From: Escherichia coli
Lineage (GTDB): Bacteria; Pseudomonadota; Gammaproteobacteria; Enterobacterales; Enterobacteriaceae
Assembly: GCF_003334355.1 (NCBI RefSeq)
Contig: NZ_QOWP01000010.1
Direction: 5' to 3' (one strand)
Length of the DNA: 64,000 nucleotides
Position numbers and translations under genes: made by a program. Position 1 is the stretch's first letter. The number at the start of each line of letters is the position of its first letter. Positions 12,403 through 21,721 of the stretch are shown one piece after another. Under the pieces are notes generated by a model. The model had not been told where the DNA came from, ran no database searches, and was given only the letters and a program-made list of their open reading frames with translations.

Positions 12403-12437
12403 GTAGACCGGAAAAGGCGTTCACGCCGCATCCGGCC
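12403..12437. repeat. REP element
   Basis: gtagaccggaaaaggcgttcacgccgcatccggcc REP-type palindrome. Confidence 0.45.
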
Positions 12438-12447
12438 ACTTTCAGTT

Positions 12448-14628
12448 TTACTCTTTCTCGGAGTAACTATAACCGTAATAGTTATAGCCGTAACTGTAAG
12501 CGGTGCTGGCGCGTTTAATCACACCATTGAGGATAGCGCCTTTAATATTGACGCCTGCCTGTTCCAGACGCTGCATTGACAAACTCACCTCTTTGGCGGT
12601 GTTCAAGCCAAAACGCGCAACCAGCAGGCTGGTGCCAACAGAACGCCCCACGACCGCGGCATCACTCACCGCCAGCATCGGCGGCGTATCGACAATCACC
12701 AGATCGTAATGGTCGTTCGCCCATTCCAGTAATTGACGCATCCGATCGCGCATCAGCAGTTCAGACGGGTTAGGTGGCACCTGACCGCGAGTAATCACAT
12801 CAAAGCCTCCTTTGCCAAAATGCTGGATCACTTTGTTGAGCTCATCTTTACCTGCCAGATATTCCGACAAGCCATGTTCATTACTCACGGTAAACAGGTT
12901 ATGCGAATAACCACGGCGTAAGTCGGCATCAATAAATAACACTTTTTGATCGGACTGGGCGATCACCGCTGCCAGAGTTGAACTGACAAACGTTTTACCA
13001 CCGTCTGGCGTCGCACCGGTGATCATCAGAATGTTATTCTCCGTCTCCATCATAGCGAAATGCAGACTGGTTCGTAGCGCACGTACGGCTTCCACAGCAG
13101 AATCCGCCGGGTTATCCGCCGCCAGGAAGGGGATATTTTTAGTACGATGGCGCTGCTGATTAGAAAATAAATTTTTCTTACGCAGACGGGTGCGTTTATC
13201 CAGCCACTCGGACATTGGGATAGTGGCATAAACGCTGATGCCGTGCTCTTCCAGTTGTTCCGGGGCTTCTACACCACGACGCAACATCGCACGCGCCAGC
13301 ACGGCACCCACAGAAATAAACAGGCCAAGAATAAAACCAAGCACCACGTTCAACGCTTTTTTCGGTTTCACTGGCTGCGGCTGAGTGACTGCCGGGTCGA
13401 TAATCCGCACGTTACCAATGGCACTGGATTTCGAAATACTCAACTCCTGCTGGCGGTTAAGTAATTGCAGATATACCGCACGGCCCGCTTCTACGTCACG
13501 ACTTAAACGCAACACTTCCTGTTGGGTGGAAGGCATTGCCGATACCCGCTTATTCAGGCGTTTGCGTTCTTGCTCCAGCGTCTGGCGTTTTTCCAGCAGC
13601 GCACGATAAGTTGGGTGATCTTTCTTATACAGCTGGGAGATCTCTGCCTCGCGGAAGGTCAGCTCATTGAGTTGATTATCAACGTTCACAATCTGCTCAA
13701 GAACGGCTTTGGCTTCCAGGTTAAGGTCAACCGAATCGCGCTGCTGGCGATAAACGTTGAGTTTTTCTTCCGCTTGGTCCAGCTCGCTGCGCACTTCAGG
13801 TAACTGGCGCTGTAAGAATTCAAGGCTTTGTGAATCCTGCGCCGCCTGGCGAGCGATATTCTGTTGCAAATAGTTGTTAGCGATGCTGTTCAGAATACGA
13901 GTAATCAACTGGGGATCATCACCAGTCATGGTAAGTTCCAGCATCCCGCTTTCTTTACTGCGTTCGCTAACGGTAAAGGTTTCCTGCAATGCGTTAATCG
14001 CTTCCAGTTCGGTACGCTGGCTCAGGACAAACTGTGTTCCTGGTTTGGCCTTAATGTCCGCGATAGTCAGCGCAACGCCATCTTTTTCCAGACGCTGGCC
14101 GACCATACCATTGACGGTGAACTCTTCACCTTCCAGTGTATAGTGGCCGTTTTCCCCAACCGTGAGTGTCAGTTGCTGATCCTGACCATTCAGTTGTGGA
14201 ATATGCATCCAGCTGATCGCCAGCTCACCTGGTTTTTCTTTGGTTAATCTCGCCCAGCCGCGACCCACAATCGGAAAATACTTCTGCTCAACTATGTCGC
14301 GCAGATTCAGTTCAGCAATGGTTTTACCGAGAATCATGCGCGATTGCAGCAGTTGGATCTCCGGTGCAGACTCGGGCGATGAGTTAGGGATCATATCGCT
14401 CAGGCCGCTGAGAATGGCGTTGCCCTGTTTTTGCTCAACCTGGACCAGAGTATCTGCCTGATAAATTGGTGTGCTTAACAGCGAGTAAGCGACAGCGATC
14501 AGCGTGAATAACGCGGTCACGCTGATAATAAACTTACGGTGATCCCATAACTCGCCGACCAGACGAAGCAGATCGATCTCATTTTCCTGAGTGCTGCCTG
14601 GTGGCGTATTCATATTTTTAGTTGTCAT
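12448..14628 (-). CDS. etk: BY-kinase (protein-tyrosine autokinase, Wzc paralog) of the group 4 capsule locus, 726 aa; C-terminal Tyr-rich tail YSYGYNYYGYSYSEKE
   Basis: Full ORF on minus strand; Walker A GATPDGGKT and C-terminal tyrosine cluster visible. Confidence 0.93.
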   Translation of the reverse strand: MTTKNMNTPPGSTQENEIDLLRLVGELWDHRKFIISVTALFTLIAVAYSLLSTPIYQADTLVQVEQKQGNAILSGLSDMIPNSSPESAPEIQLLQSRMILGKTIAELNLRDIVEQKYFPIVGRGWARLTKEKPGELAISWMHIPQLNGQDQQLTLTVGENGHYTLEGEEFTVNGMVGQRLEKDGVALTIADIKAKPGTQFVLSQRTELEAINALQETFTVSERSKESGMLELTMTGDDPQLITRILNSIANNYLQQNIARQAAQDSQSLEFLQRQLPEVRSELDQAEEKLNVYRQQRDSVDLNLEAKAVLEQIVNVDNQLNELTFREAEISQLYKKDHPTYRALLEKRQTLEQERKRLNKRVSAMPSTQQEVLRLSRDVEAGRAVYLQLLNRQQELSISKSSAIGNVRIIDPAVTQPQPVKPKKALNVVLGFILGLFISVGAVLARAMLRRGVEAPEQLEEHGISVYATIPMSEWLDKRTRLRKKNLFSNQQRHRTKNIPFLAADNPADSAVEAVRALRTSLHFAMMETENNILMITGATPDGGKTFVSSTLAAVIAQSDQKVLFIDADLRRGYSHNLFTVSNEHGLSEYLAGKDELNKVIQHFGKGGFDVITRGQVPPNPSELLMRDRMRQLLEWANDHYDLVIVDTPPMLAVSDAAVVGRSVGTSLLVARFGLNTAKEVSLSMQRLEQAGVNIKGAILNGVIKRASTAYSYGYNYYGYSYSEKE

Positions 14629-14647
14629 CGTATTTTATAAACTCAAA

Positions 14648-15094
14648 TTACCGGCTGAGGCGCTTCGCCCATTCCTGACTGGCGCGCTCCAACATACCGT
14701 AGACATGTTCAAATGCGTCCTGACTTTTACGATAGGGATCCGGGATCTCTTTCTGTTCCAGCCATTGCCCAAACAGCATTGTCTTCCCGCGGACCTCGGG
14801 AGCAATTGCGGTAACCTGAGCAATATGTTCCGACTCCATTGCCAGAATCAGATCGTAATTTCGTGCCATCTCAGCAGTGAGCTTACGTCCGGCATGTCCT
14901 TCAAGAGATACGCCATGATTAGCGGCAACATCTGCCGCTGTCGCATCTGCAGGGTGTTTTACCAGACCATGAACACCTGCCGATTTGACTTTTACGCCCG
15001 GCAGACGTTTACGCAGCAAGCGCTCGCCAATGGGCGAACGGCAAATGTTGCCGGTACAAACCACCAGGATTGAGTTAAATTTTAGTTGGGCCAT
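14648..15094 (-). CDS. etp: low-molecular-weight protein-tyrosine phosphatase (CTGNICRS active site), 148 aa
   Basis: ORF 14648..15106; known N-terminus [21 protein letters not shown] at start 15094. Confidence 0.92.
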
Positions 15095-16221
15095 GTTTGA
15101 ATCCACCGTGAAGTCTCTGTCAGGTCATGCACCCCGGAAATCGTCGGTACCAGCAGAGAAATCACACGGTTCCAACGAGCCAGCGGCGCGGTAGTGACAT
15201 AAACAATGTCGTAAGGTTCAAGCTGGAATTCCGTTCCGAGTATCATTGCCGATGCGTCCTTCGCATTCAGCTGATAAATATTGGCGATTTTGCCATTCTG
15301 CTTGTTTTGCGTTGCACGAATAACAAAAATCCCCGTCGCATCAGCGACATCCTGATTCATACCCTCAGCGTTACCCAGCGCTTCCGCCAGGGTCATACCG
15401 CTGCGGTCCATTTTCAGCGTGCTCTGTTTACCCACTTCACCCATCACGAAGACTTTCAGATCATCGTTGCGCGGAATAAATAAAATATCGCCCGGGTGCA
15501 GCAGTTTGTTCTGGCGCAAGTCGCCACGCTGCATCAGCGCATAGAGGTTCACTTTGGTCTTTACGCCATTCTGGGTGAGCACCACGTTGCGCCAGTCTGC
15601 ATCTGCGGTCAGACCGCCCGCGGCGTTAATCGCATCCATGATGGTCAGAGGAATATTGGTAATCGGCTGCTGACCCGATTTGCTGACTTCGCCGGTGACG
15701 TACGCTTTTTGCGATCGGAACGCCGCGACGCTGACATCGACTTGCGGGCTTTCAATGACTGAATCGAGACGCGCTGTAATCTCGTTGCGTACCTGGGTAA
15801 GTGTTTTCCCGGCCACTTTCAGGCGACCAATATAGGGGTAGAAAATCGCACCATCGGCGTTAACCCAGTTGCCGGTATCACTGGCGCTACGGTATTGCCC
15901 TGCGGGGGTGGTTAGTTCCGGGTGATCCCAGACCGTAACCATCAACACATCACCAATCCCGATACGATATTCATAGTTTGCGATTTGCTGCTCCAGCTCC
16001 GGGTTAGCCTGCGACATAATCGGTTTGGCGCGCAACTGATCAATCAATCCTGGCGTGACGGGATAGATATTGACCATTTTGTCCAGGTCATACTGATTGT
16101 CAGGTAGTTCAATGACATCCTTGTTACTGGTCGATAAATTCTGACCAGGAACAAGGGTACATGCTGTCAAAGACAGAACAGCCAATGTCAGTACCGAAAA
16201 CTTAAAAATGTTCTTTTTCAT
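15082..16221 (-). CDS. gfcE: Wza-like outer membrane polysaccharide export lipoprotein, 379 aa
   Basis: ORF 15082..16242; N-terminus [21 protein letters not shown] (lipobox) at start 16221. Confidence 0.92.
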
Positions 16222-16266
16222 TGGTTTATATTTATCAGTCAATGTAATGTTATGAATTACGTCAGG

Positions 16267-18363
16267 TTATTGTCCAACCGGTACTTCTCGCTCTGCCGTC
16301 ATTGGATAGAGCTGGTATTTGCGTGACAGCATTTGTCCACCATCACGCGTCAATGGTGTCCACGAAACCACCGCGCGGTTGCGGTTAGGTCCAATGGTCA
16401 TCAAGTCGAATGGAATCGAGATATAAAAACCTTTACTAAAGCCGCCTTCGCCGTAGTCATCTTTAGATACGTTACTGATTGCCGCCCATATCCCTACCGC
16501 CACGCCGCTGTCAAAGCGTTTGGCGACGTCGATCGTTGCGCCTTTATCTTTTGCCAGATATTGCCCAACGCTAAGTTTCATCAGTACGCCATTGAGCGTC
16601 GGCGGGTTCCAGTAAGCCGTCACGAAACCTGTTGGCGTGGAATAATCGGTGAAACGCATCATGTTGTCCCAGTCACGTTGCTTCACGTAGTTAACGTCCA
16701 CACCCAGCGCCCAGCAGGCATCTAGCGGGCGATAAAGCAGCTCGGAACCGACACCGGCGTACATCGTTTCCAGATAACCGCCATACACCTGGCCATAGAA
16801 ACCATTGCCTAAGTCAGCAAAATAGTTCGCCTGCAAGTTGTTGAGATAAACGTCATTGCGAACGTAGTCACGGATATGCGTGCGCACGCGGGGCAGGGTA
16901 GAGTCCGCGGGCAACAGCGAAGACTTAAACTTGTCGTAGTTGTTGTAAATATTGGTGAAAATACCGCCATCAAGCAGCAGGTGGTCGGTAAACCAGTAGC
17001 GGGCACTGGACATCAGCCCCAGCTGGAACATATAGAAATCTTCCGGGCCGCCCAGCGACTGTGAAAGTGTTGGGTTGAAAGAGTAGCTAAAGCGATCTTC
17101 ACGAATACGGTAGCCCCGACCAAAGGCAGAAAGATCTTCTGCTTCAACACGTTGTTGTTGAAGTTGCTCTGATTGACCAGGCGCTGTACCAGCCAGCTGT
17201 TTGCGCAGGCTGGCTACGTCGGTTTCGGTAGTCACCATCGCCATATGCTCGCGCTTTTGCGTCACGCTAATCTTCTCAACGCCTTGCGGCAGGTTATTCA
17301 CCAGAATCCGGTTGGCACGATCGACCGCTTCGCGAGAATCACGGTATTTGTATTGTTGACCAGACATATACAGCGTCTTATCGCGCAGCTGAATTTCCGG
17401 TGCTTCAAAACCTGCGTTGTACTTCAGCGCGGTAAGTTGGTTCGCTACTGTGGTGTACTGCAATCCTTCAGATTCAGGCGCAGGTTGATATGCCGGTTTT
17501 GGCGTATCGCGCAGGGCAGGGCGCAGATCGTTGAAATTGGTCCGTAACGTGAAGCCAAACATCAACGCGTTACCGCGTTCATAACTCAGGTTGAGATCTG
17601 CCCAGCTGGCAGCGCGATAAACTGCGCCGACGTTGAAATGGCTTGCCTGAGGCAGTTTGCCAGCGAAATCATTCTGGTAATTGTTGCCATCGTATTCGAG
17701 TTTCAGACGCAGGGGATTCCACGGCGTTTGATACTCAATGCCGCCAAAGATGGAAGCCGGGCCACGAAAGATATCGCTAAAGCTGATATCGCCCGCATCG
17801 TGAGACTCTGCGCGATGACAATATTTATCGCTCACCCGGCAAAACGGGTTGGTAATATTGCCCGCATTACCGGCGTAGCCCCATGCCATCCCGAGGGTGA
17901 AATCAAATGGCCCCGCTTGCTTGCTGGCCACCAGATACTCACCTTCAAACAGACCCGTACCAGCAATATCACGTTTACCAAACGCCACTTGCGGTAGCCA
18001 GTAACCTTCTTCCCACAGGCGAAGTTTAAAATCGAATGATTTGTCTTTGTATGACTGATCGCCGCTGAAATCTTCCCACTGGCTATATTTGCGTGTGCGC
18101 ACATCCGTATAACGAATGGTGCCTTCCAGCCATGGGAACAGCGCCACGGAGGTGGAGTAGAACCGGTATTGATCGTTATCCCGGTAGTTGACGCTGAATT
18201 CACCTTCCGGTGCGATGCGCGCATTTGGCATCTGCAACAATCCTGTGCCGCCAAAGTCTGATTGCGACGAACCCAGCGGATCCGGGTAGGTTAATACTTC
18301 AGCATGACAGGCACTGGAGACGGCAATGGCCAGGCAGCTTAAAAGATAAGAATTCTTCTTCAT
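16267..18363 (-). CDS. gfcD: group 4 capsule outer membrane beta-barrel protein GfcD (YmcA), 698 aa
   Basis: Full [24 protein letters not shown]..., signal peptide. Confidence 0.92.
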
Positions 18364-19109
18364 CAGTCAGGAACACGTTGCGTTAAAACAGACACAATCT
18401 GGTCATTTAAATCAGCATATTTTTCGGGCAGTACATGCGCAGAAAAGCCCAACCAAAGCTGGCTGCCAGGCGGTGGTTCCACATGTCTTTTATTCCACAG
18501 GGCAACAGGGGCGACGACAGTCTCACCCTCAGGCGTAATCACCATAACGTTATTCTTGTCCGCGCCTGCAAGGCGGGGGTGATCTTGCAGATAATCGGTA
18601 ACGCTACGGCCTGCCTGCCAGGGCAATTGCCCGGCCCCAGAAACCGCACCCAGCAGAGTAATAGTCACCGGACGCTGTACGGTATAGAGCGTATAGTCCC
18701 CGACCAACGGGGGATTGCTGTTCTCATCCACTCGTACAAAATCAGGGTCCAGTTTGACCGGTAAGCGACCAGTGATATTGAGATTGAGTAACTGCTGGCG
18801 CACGGATTTAATCGTTGCCGCCACATCGTCGTCAGCTTCTGCTTCCCAGGAAGCAAGCTGTGCCATGACATGTTGGTAGTCTTTAAGCGCTTTAGCTTTC
18901 GCCGCAGAGTCGGTCAGCAAGGCACCAGGCCACCAGAGGCGATCGCGCAGTTGCGGTTGTGTCACCAACTGGACAACATTTTCCATGGGGCCAACGGAAA
19001 GTGTCTGTTGTTCGCCAGGCAGATAAATAGTCACCGTTCCTTGCGCAAAGGCATGGGGTGTCATTACGTAAAGTACGCTGGCAATGAAATACGACTGTAA
19101 TTTATTCAT
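18363..19109 (-). CDS. gfcC: group 4 capsule periplasmic protein GfcC (YmcB), 248 aa
   Basis: Full [30 protein letters not shown]..., stop overlaps gfcD start. Confidence 0.9.
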
Positions 19110-19750
19110 GGTGCGGGTTTAAGAAACGTCATTTCTACGGGAATAACCCCTGCGCCTAACATTTGCCGACTTTGACGAACCTGGCCAGTAGCCGAATCGA
19201 CCCAGAATGTGTTTTGCCACTGTTTTTCTGGCCGCGTGGAAGTCACCTCTTCCTGCCAGACATTACACAGCACATTACGACCCGCAATATTCAGCGTCTC
19301 TAATCCAGCAAAGGAAAAAGTAGAACTCAGGGTCGCAGAGCGAAAATGGTTGTCTTCACTCCAGAGAATATCGCGCGTCCAGCGGCTGCCATCTTTTATT
19401 GCCAGCGCGTTACGCAGAGGGTCCTGCCCGGAATTTGTCACTTCCAGCAGATTATTATTAAGTTTGACGGTTTTTAAAAGACGTCCATTGTGGGTAACCA
19501 GCATGGCGTTATCCTGGGATAACCATTTGCTTTGTTCTTGTTCTATATATCCCAGTACCACAAAGATTCGTTGCCCTTCATTAAGGCGTAAATACATAGT
19601 GGAATAAGGCAACGCCTGGATCTGCTGATCCGCTACGGTGATATCCTGATTATCGAAAAGGCTGGCGCGAAATGTATCGACCATACTTTGCTGGCTGTGC
19701 GTACATCCCGCAAGAAATAGTGCGAAAATCGATAAAATAAGAGGGCGCAC
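19106..19750 (-). CDS. gfcB: group 4 capsule lipoprotein GfcB (YmcC), 214 aa
   Basis: Full ORF MRPLILSIFALFLAGCTHS... (lipobox LAGC). Confidence 0.9.
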   Translation of the reverse strand: MRPLILSIFALFLAGCTHSQQSMVDTFRASLFDNQDITVADQQIQALPYSTMYLRLNEGQRIFVVLGYIEQEQSKWLSQDNAMLVTHNGRLLKTVKLNNNLLEVTNSGQDPLRNALAIKDGSRWTRDILWSEDNHFRSATLSSTFSFAGLETLNIAGRNVLCNVWQEEVTSTRPEKQWQNTFWVDSATGQVRQSRQMLGAGVIPVEMTFLKPAP

Positions 19751-19856
19751 CTTTAATCCTTGAAAGGTTAATTAAAAAAATGCAAATCTCTAAAGCCCGG
19801 TACGAATATCGCAACCGGGTATCATTTAACTTTAATTTCGACGCGTTAAAGCAGTA

Positions 19857-20165
19857 TTAGCGTGTAGTGGACGTGGTGGTTGAGGTGTTATGAGAACCGC
19901 CATCGCCACTGTCATTTGCTGCAACAACTGCCAACGTCGCCACACCAACAGCCGTTGCCACACCGACAACTGTCGCCGTGCCGACAGCGCCAGCAGCCAC
20001 GCCACCAGTGGTAGTAGCAGCAGTCGTGGTTGCGCCGGTAGTGGTCGTTGTGGTGCCAGTAGTACCCGTCGTTGCATCGGTCCCGTTTGTTGCTTCAGGG
20101 GCAGCAAACGCAGCTGGCGTCGTCAACATGAAGGCCATAAGGATTGCAGAAAGCTTGTGTTTCAT
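19857..20165 (-). CDS. gfcA: Thr-rich small secreted/membrane protein GfcA (YmcD), about 101 aa
   Basis: ORF 19857..20183; MKHKLSAILMAFMLTTPAAFA signal then threonine-rich low-complexity region; start at 20165. Confidence 0.85.
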   Translation of the reverse strand: MKHKLSAILMAFMLTTPAAFAAPEATNGTDATTGTTGTTTTTTGATTTAATTTGGVAAGAVGTATVVGVATAVGVATLAVVAANDSGDGGSHNTSTTTSTTR

Positions 20166-20606
20166 AACTTTTCCTTTATTCATCGCATGGACAATACGTA
20201 CGCTTGAGATCAGGATTGTCTACTTTGAGTATAACATCCTTGTGAAATCTCCCTTTCCTCATACCGCTTGCACTATATACTGCGGGTAGGAAAGGCGCGC
20301 AGAGGGAAATATAAGATTGTTAACTATCCCCCTCTGGAAATACGACTTGTGAGCATAAGATAAATCTTAGCAAAATACGAATTAAAGATAAGGAAATTGT
20401 TACGAAAGCTATTAATTATTGTTGGTAATATAGTTTTAAGTGGTACTATAACTGGCTGTTAAATGGCATTTATAACTATTAGGTGCAGAGATATTCGCTT
20501 AAATGGATTAGTTTCTTTGTGGAAAAGTAACTGATGTTATAATGTATGATGTTGACTATTGCACTATTCCAATAAAACCAGTCAGCTTTAAACAAGCAGC
20601 GTCATA

Positions 20607-20819
20607 TTAAGAGAGATAAACATTTGCCGCTGTTGGTCCTCGCAGGCCATTTACGCGGCAAAATTCCACACGTAATCCTGGTATAAGCACTTCTGCGTCG
20701 CGGGGAGTGAATGCGGAAATATGGACCTGAACTTCTTTACGACCGTCGGAGGGGATAATGAATCCTTTGCCGCTTTTGCGATCAAAGGTTTTGACAATTC
20801 CTGTCATTTTACGGGACAA
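20607..20819 (-). CDS. cspH: CspA-family cold-shock-like protein CspH, 70 aa
   Basis: [40 protein letters not shown]... Confidence 0.9.
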
Positions 20820-21104
20820 ACAAATTCCTTACTGAAAATACTGCGCTGCACTATACGGGGTTAATAAAATAAAGCCAGCGATATTTAAGACCGCCGGACG
20901 GCTAAAATAAAATTTGCTTAATCTCAATTATCATGCGTTAATAGCTGCGTCGGTTTGAAAGACAGACAGCATACAAAGTAGTTTACTAAAGCAGTTCTCA
21001 TTATCAGGCATTATCCCCTTCTTTTGAGTCTCTCTCCTGAACACTAAGTAGTTTCTGTATTAAAGCCCTGTTTGCCGAAAGGCCCAAAATGAAGGAAGTA
21101 AAAT

Positions 21105-21317
21105 ATGTCTAATAAAATGACTGGTTTAGTAAAATGGTTTAACGCAGATAAAGGTTTTGGCTTTATCACTCCTGATGATGGCAGCAAAGACGTTTTCGTC
21201 CATTTCACCGCCATCCAGAGCAATGAATTCCGCACGCTGAACGAAAATCAGAAAGTTGAATTTTCTATTGAGCAGGGGCAACGTGGCCCCGCGGCAGCGA
21301 ACGTTGTTACGCTCTAA
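21105..21317 (+). CDS. cspG: cold shock protein CspG, 70 aa
   Basis: [41 protein letters not shown]..., strong RBS, long AT-rich 5' leader upstream. Confidence 0.92.
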
Positions 21318-21516
21318 GGTTGCCATTATTACTCAACATCTCCATTTCCGCTGTCCATGTTGTCATGGTTCACAGTACCGCACATCGGCATTCGATGTGA
21401 CGGAGCGAAACCCTTTGGGCGCTAAGTGTATTTTTTGTAAATCGACGATGATCACCTTTGATAACGTCGCGCTGCAAATACGCACTGACCATGCGCCGCT
21501 GGATTTCACAAAATAA
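21256..21516 (+). CDS. ymcF: small Cys-rich (CPCC...CIFC zinc-ribbon-like) protein immediately downstream of cspG; true start uncertain, probably downstream of the cspG stop; ymcF assignment tentative
   Basis: Track ORF 21256..21516 ends [57 protein letters not shown]; position downstream of a csp gene matches the described small protein YmcF; no in-frame ATG between the cspG stop and the Cys motifs. Confidence 0.4.
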
Positions 21517-21721
21517 TATCAGGCTCCCTCGTGGAGCCTTTTTTATATCTGCCTTATTTTTCTTCAACGCTGTATGTATAGTAAGCGATAACCTGTTGAT
21601 TATTGAATCTTTCGGGGAGATGGCTTATAACATTTCTTACCTGACCAGGGTACCGGGAACCAACACCTTACTGGCGTGTTGCTGTCTTTTAAGACCAGAA
21701 GAGGTTAACAGTGAATATTGA
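21491..21721 (+). CDS. ymcE: small protein YmcE (Sfa), 76 aa
   Basis: ORF 21458..21721; known N-terminus [25 protein letters not shown] at ATG 21491; 3' end overlaps the gnsA start. Confidence 0.5.
   Translation: MRRWISQNNIRLPRGAFFISALFFFNAVCIVSDNLLIIESFGEMAYNISYLTRVPGTNTLLACCCLLRPEEVNSEY

Follow-up and report, generated by a model that had tools for sequence, protein, structure and literature searches.

An intact gfcABCDE-etp-etk operon with an uninterrupted, IS1-free upstream spacer in Escherichia coli

Introduction

The group 4 capsule (G4C) operon gfcABCDE-etp-etk raises a simple question wherever it is met in a new E. coli genome: is the region upstream of gfcA the native regulatory spacer of the operon, or does it carry the IS1 element found at this place in K-12, and what does its state say about the capacity of the strain to express the capsule export machinery? 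The operon with its native promoter is reportedly known from EPEC, EHEC and Shigella sonnei (Peleg et al. 2005; Shifrin et al. 2008; Caboni et al. 2015), and the difference between K-12 and the wild-type gfc locus has reportedly been in print since 2005. The IS1-free gfc spacer is, in this respect, already documented, and the K-12 difference is published and routinely mentioned in genome papers. In isolate 26561, a different strain that is likened to ours by its published description only, the G4C locus was described without IS1 and the contrast with K-12 was remarked (PMC6128206).

Here, the question is addressed for a 64-kb stretch of E. coli DNA, referred to as the window. An earlier note on this DNA had proposed that the spacer between gfcA and cspH is contiguous and that the strain may express the G4C export machinery. 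We conclude that the interval 20166-20606 is the native, ancestral and uninterrupted regulatory spacer of gfcABCDE-etp-etk, a reading to which we assign a probability of about 0.9. Its import scarcely goes beyond annotation: the group 4 capsule export locus is structurally competent in this strain, in contrast to that of K-12.

The gfcABCDE-etp-etk genes

The operon occupies positions 12448-20165 on the minus strand as seven consecutive ORFs, which stand in the canonical order between appA and cspH (Table 1). All seven ORFs are full-length and have no internal stops, so that their intactness, asserted in the earlier note, is borne out. Their lengths equal those of K-12 and O157, with the exception of gfcA (102 vs 101 aa), the gene order is colinear with the RefSeq-annotated loci of K-12, MLI023K1 and O157, and the seven proteins display 97-100% identity to those of O157. 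For GfcE, Etp and Etk, the NCBIfam models NF011658 (703 bits), NF008486 (334 bits) and NF007350 (1591 bits), respectively, are matched with scores that exceed the curated cut-offs. GfcA, GfcB, GfcC and GfcD match no NCBIfam model, and their identity therefore rests on the 97-100% identity to annotated proteins.

Table 1. Positions of the operon genes, the spacer elements and the neighbouring cold-shock genes in the window.
Feature	Position	Strand	Remarks
etk, BY-kinase, 726 aa	12448..14628	-	intact; V504A and S543G vs K-12
etp, low-molecular-weight phosphotyrosine phosphatase, 148 aa	14648..15094	-	identical to K-12 and O157
gfcE, OPX polysaccharide export protein, Wza paralogue, 379 aa	15082..16221	-	identical to K-12 and O157
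gfcD, YjbH-domain outer membrane protein, 698 aa	16267..18363	-	intact; 5 substitutions vs K-12
gfcC, 248 aa	18363..19109	-	intact; 1 substitution vs K-12
gfcB, lipoprotein, 214 aa	19106..19750	-	identical to K-12
gfcA, threonine-rich inner membrane protein, 102 aa	19857..20165	-	intact; E30D and one extra Ala vs K-12
gfcA-cspH intergenic spacer	20166..20606	-	441 bp, uninterrupted; colinear with IS-free genomes
Proximal block, nearly invariant	20166..20225	-	59/60 positions identical in four taxa
GACAATACG, 9-bp IS1D target	20190..20198	.	single copy; 25-33 bp upstream of the gfcA ATG
TGTTATACT, extended -10-like	20228..20236	-	invariant; poor -35; outside the top PWM candidates
Second conserved upstream block	20286..20405	-	15-18/20 positions invariant per 20-nt bin
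Perfect palindrome TAAGATAAATCTTA	20356..20369	.	within the conserved upstream block; invariant in four Escherichia taxa
cspH, 70 aa	20607..20819	-	identical to K-12; far boundary of the spacer
cspG	21105-21317	+	beyond cspH

The same seven genes, in the same order and orientation, make up the operon (ymcDCBA-yccZ-etp-etk) of EPEC O127:H6, EHEC O157:H7 and Shigella sonnei. In these strains the capsule is made, and in the strain of the window it may be. The locus of O157:H7, with which GfcE and Etp are shared without change, differs at the protein level by the extra Ala in GfcA and by S543G and V504A in Etk. At the level of its sequence, the locus has every attribute of a wild-type group 4 capsule export operon.

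Two of these protein differences deserve a closer description. GfcA has 102 rather than 101 residues because of an additional AGC triplet (Ala) at 20016-20018, which lies within a short AGC repeat in the Thr/Ala/Gly-rich low-complexity region of the protein and is absent from all compared genomes. In Etk, codon 543 (13002-13004) turns the Walker A motif GATPDSGKT of K-12 and O157 into GATPDGGKT, a form that is also present in MLI023K1. The S543G substitution affects the residue that immediately precedes GK in the P-loop, within the catalytic motif, and is probably tolerated. The C-terminal tyrosine cluster of Etk is unchanged with respect to K-12.

The gfcA-cspH spacer and the K-12 IS1D insertion

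On the minus strand, gfcA has its start codon at 20165-20163 and cspH its stop codon at 20609-20607, so that the spacer between them measures 441 bp. It contains the native upstream regulatory region of the gfc operon and its 5' leader, together with the 3' flank of cspH. Its GC content is 0.31-0.40 across 20200-20600, compared with about 0.45-0.6 in the genes on either side, in agreement with the earlier description of a contiguous, AT-rich spacer of about 440 bp without IS1 ends or insA/insB. Indeed, a scan for the IS1 terminal inverted repeat that allowed up to 3 mismatches returned zero matches within the 64-kb window, and blastn and tblastn of the window with IS1D of K-12 and the ORFs of that element gave chance matches of 12-22 nt only. 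In the alignment of 19750-20900 that had been suggested as a check, the interval is colinear from end to end with E. coli genomes that are free of the IS; the identity is 99.6%, the best value among the complete E. coli genomes, none of which matches this interval at 100%; K-12 differs by the 768-bp IS1D.

In K-12, the spacer is not equally uninterrupted. In its gfcA-cspH interval, the genome NZ_CP043189.1 has an annotated "IS1-like element IS1D family transposase", and in the alignment the 768-bp IS1D stands 25 bp ahead of the ATG of gfcA, between the two copies of the duplicated 9-bp sequence GACAATACG. At the K-12 junctions, GACAATACG directly abuts GGTGATGCTGCC on one side of IS1, and GTCATTACC abuts GACAATACGTACG on the other. 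The K-12 locus, gfcA::IS1D (insAB-4), is otherwise the same, with flanks that are 99.1-99.8% identical and with GfcB, GfcE and Etp unchanged. Since GACAATACG is present once in the window, the equivalent site at 20190-20198 is empty, and with a single target copy and no IS1 ends or ORFs in the window, the K-12-type gfcA::IS1D disruption is absent.

The insertion in K-12 leaves the Shine-Dalgarno sequence and the ATG joined to gfcA and severs everything further upstream. It has been reported that the K-12 ymc/gfc promoter carries IS1 and that pathogenic strains lack it there (PMC2516531), and IS1D has likewise been located in the gfcA promoter region (PMC12428005). Annotation, alignment and these two reports agree that K-12 has IS1 in its gfc promoter region, in the interval from gfcA to cspH, as the earlier note had stated. 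The further claim that IS1 silences the K-12 operon goes somewhat too far, since K-12 does express etk in certain conditions (PMC2516531). A genomic SELEX study (PMC3946193) lists a site for RNA polymerase in the gfcA-insA4 interval and predicts, on the side of gfcA, the promoter TGGAGA-18-TACACT; read as its reverse complement, the IS1 end at the K-12 junction matches this motif.

Frequency and ancestry of the uninterrupted site

The distribution of the two states was surveyed in 5426 complete E. coli genomes with a 101-bp stretch across the insertion site as probe. This stretch was found in 3611 genomes, and in 3195 of them (88%) it is uninterrupted. The outgroups are uninterrupted too, and any suggestion that the IS1-free state would be unusual is unfounded. 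By contrast with these numbers, a 40-mer spanning the K-12 gfcA-IS1 junction has exact matches in 390 genomes, and among 60 sampled carriers nearly all are K-12 laboratory derivatives (e.g., MG1655, W3110, J53, HB101, JM109, NEB10-beta, Stbl4). The pig strain ETEC1730 and EC06 are apparent non-laboratory carriers of the exact K-12 gfcA::IS1D junction. About a third of the complete E. coli genomes, e.g., O25:H4 strains, lack gfc-etp-etk, and in these cspH adjoins appA.

The insertion site is contiguous and invariant in O157, in E. albertii and in Escherichia sp. MOD1-EC7003, a member of a cryptic Escherichia clade; it follows that the site was empty ancestrally and that the insertion arose later, in K-12. 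On this comparison, the IS1D state of K-12 is a derived and essentially lineage-specific lesion.

Conserved elements and promoter candidates in the spacer

The conservation footprint of the spacer was obtained from a four-taxon alignment of the window, O157, E. albertii and Escherichia sp. MOD1-EC7003. The nearly invariant proximal block (20166-20225) contains the Shine-Dalgarno sequence AAGGAA as well as the K-12 IS1 site, and it includes the probable 5' leader. A second block, at 20286-20405, is probably regulatory. The distal half of the spacer, toward cspH, is poorly conserved (7-10/20 positions per bin), with the exception of 20466-20485 (14/20). Comparison with O157 alone is consistent in that the proximal 100 bp of its uninterrupted spacer are identical to the window, whereas 29 substitutions separate the two in the distal and middle parts.

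To our knowledge, no transcription start site is known for the gfc operon. Scanning the spacer with the sigma-70 consensus gave no promoter on the gfcA (minus) strand, and a PWM promoter scan with shuffles reached a best score of 7.6, below the median shuffled maximum of 9.3. The element TGTTATACT, read at 20236-20228, could be an extended -10, which would make it, by inference only, a candidate for the core promoter.

A functional argument comes from S. sonnei: there, a delta-g4c strain regained its capsule when it received the g4c operon cloned "with its own promoter" (Caboni et al. 2015, PMC4368438). The cloning primers of that work map to 20437-20458 and 12429-12451 of the window, and as the plasmid fragment restored the capsule, a working promoter should lie within 293 bp upstream of gfcA, assuming no read-through from the vector. 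This placement agrees with the conservation footprint, and the second conserved block falls inside the complementing fragment (window equivalent 12429-20458). We infer that the functional promoter and the leader are located in the conserved proximal 240-290 bp or so, from 20166 to about 20405-20458. Position 20437, also inside the promoter-active S. sonnei fragment, carries T where the usual allele is C (the exact 71-mer occurs in 26/3068 genomes), and this T turns a TTGAAA hexamer into TTAAAA on the gfcA strand.

Within the second conserved block, the palindrome TAAGATAAATCTTA resembles the RcsAB-box consensus TaAGaatatTCcta (Wehland & Bernhard 2000, as given in PMC4325325). It matches 10 of the 14 positions, including all five most-conserved bases, and an equal match is found by chance in 8.5% of shuffled spacers. 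The core pattern of the RcsAB box has its sole occurrence in the 64-kb window at 20356-20369, where 0.19 occurrences are expected. The palindrome is thus a weak candidate for an RcsAB box and a lead for control of the operon by Rcs. Our literature search returned nothing specific on the regulation of gfc by Rcs, H-NS or a repressor.

The small ORFs of the spacer (20-38 aa) carry no annotation in any RefSeq relative and none of them is supported, and the Rfam scan of the spacer gave no match. For an intrinsic terminator of cspH, no convincing candidate was found downstream of the gene, with a fold z-score of 0.26 and an empty terminator scan of the spacer.

Expression of the operon and formation of capsule

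From about 20199 upstream, the sequence, with the transcription signals that it holds, is linked without a break to the ribosome-binding site of gfcA and to the seven intact genes. In the proposed scheme, a weak or activator-dependent promoter in the interval from 20199 to about 20405 would drive transcription of the seven genes behind a leader of at least some 55 nt. IS1D would cut the connection between promoter and operon in K-12, whereas in the window this connection would be intact. Because the putative promoter and leader sit in the intact conserved proximal region, the strain can in principle transcribe the operon, and it is plausible, as judged from these sequence features, that it expresses the capsule export machinery. 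Absence of IS1 is necessary for expression of the operon; it is not sufficient. An O-antigen capsule would be formed only in the presence of a Wzy-dependent O-antigen cluster and of the right regulatory input, and both the O-antigen cluster and the regulators lie outside the 64-kb window.

The alternative that survives best is that the operon, intact and IS1-free as it is, remains silent or conditional, for instance through silencing by H-NS or a need for an activator such as Rcs. The GC content of the spacer (31-40%) and the lack of a sigma-70 consensus promoter scoring above shuffled sequences would fit this idea, and the conserved RcsAB-box-like palindrome suggests activator dependence. Moreover, the EHEC capsule is reported to be regulated inversely to the type III secretion system (cited in PMC8592465). 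However, O157:H7, EPEC O127 and S. sonnei, which have near-identical upstream sequences, make the capsule in culture (PMC4368438; bioRxiv 10.64898/2026.07.23.740414), and over the proximal 100 bp the window does not differ from O157. Silence or conditional expression is accordingly a possibility to be kept in mind, albeit a somewhat doubtful one.

It is less likely still that the machinery is expressed and that the capsule is nevertheless absent, be it for lack of a functional Wzy-dependent O-antigen pathway, as in rough laboratory strains, or through a defect elsewhere. Most natural isolates are smooth, which speaks for a working pathway in an isolate of this kind. On the other hand, the G4C shares its O-antigen repeat units with LPS and needs the O-antigen cluster (PMC4368438, PMC8592465), and the window, from which that cluster is absent by position, leaves room for such an outcome; on balance we consider it unlikely.

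A K-12-derived strain in which precise excision of IS1D had secondarily restored the spacer is very improbable and was rejected: the flanks are close to K-12 (99.1-99.8%) and the pgaA-dgcT-IS3 arrangement at the far end is common to both, but precise IS1 excision is rare, the window is nearer to natural phylogroup-A-like isolates (99.9%), and, decisively, substitutions with respect to K-12 are scattered through the operon (GfcC 1, GfcD 5, Etk 2, GfcA 2) and the site, with its single GACAATACG, is scarless and matches the outgroups.

The reading of the spacer as native and ancestral is the one that is retained here. If the strain is smooth and the operon is expressed, this would have a bearing on phage susceptibility, on resistance to antimicrobial peptides and on the shielding of surface structures.

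Further insertion events at the gfc locus

Insertion sequences have entered this locus in other genomes as well. In RM9513, IS1A lies in the 3' end of gfcA (equivalent to window positions 19867-19876), and in 1297KP it has entered the spacer at a distance of about 240 bp from gfcA (20400-20412). Strain 2023CK-01482 has IS1A and has lost gfcA, together with the proximal promoter, by deletion (19877-20363), while 23CRST009 carries IS1A in the opposite orientation together with a deletion that extends from etk to gfcA (12699-20196). The IS1 junction of 23CRST009, at 20197, falls inside the 9-mer targeted in K-12 (20190-20198). In addition, IS3 or IS5 is present in the operon region of further genomes among the top matches.

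IS1 sites and orientations differ among K-12, 1297KP, RM9513, 2023CK-01482 and 23CRST009, and the events in the natural isolates are independent. This pattern suggests either a hotspot or a recurrent selection for loss of the capsule operon at the gfcA locus. Recurrent IS1 events could reflect selection against the capsule, e.g., by phages that use it as a receptor. If the locus is indeed a recurrent target, the K-12 lesion would be an example of a general on/off switch in evolution. If the palindrome at 20356-20369 is an Rcs operator, group 4 capsule export would come under envelope-stress control, like colanic acid and the paralogous yjbEFGH. The joint reading, in which the palindrome is an operator for Rcs (RcsAB/RcsB) and IS1 recurrently hits the gfcA 5' region under selective pressure, is a speculative one that we hold to be improbable.

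Surroundings of the operon and nearest relatives

The window spans roughly the region from hspQ/rlmI via hya, app, gfc, csp, tor, rut, put, efe and pga to dgcT-IS3. Beyond cspH, the cspG leader and gene (20949-21371) match the Rfam cspA thermoregulator RF01766 with 159 bits, above the gathering score, and a sub-threshold Rfam match to STnc220 is found at 21474-21554; neither is out of the ordinary. Over 12 kb, the closest genomes are those of human and animal isolates such as MLI023K1, with 99.9% identity. At its far end (63879-64000), the window terminates inside an IS3 beside dgcT (ycdT), an arrangement that is also that of K-12. In MLI023K1, an IS3-associated deletion has removed dgcT and the 5' part of pgaA, so that positions 60253-63878 of the window are missing there.
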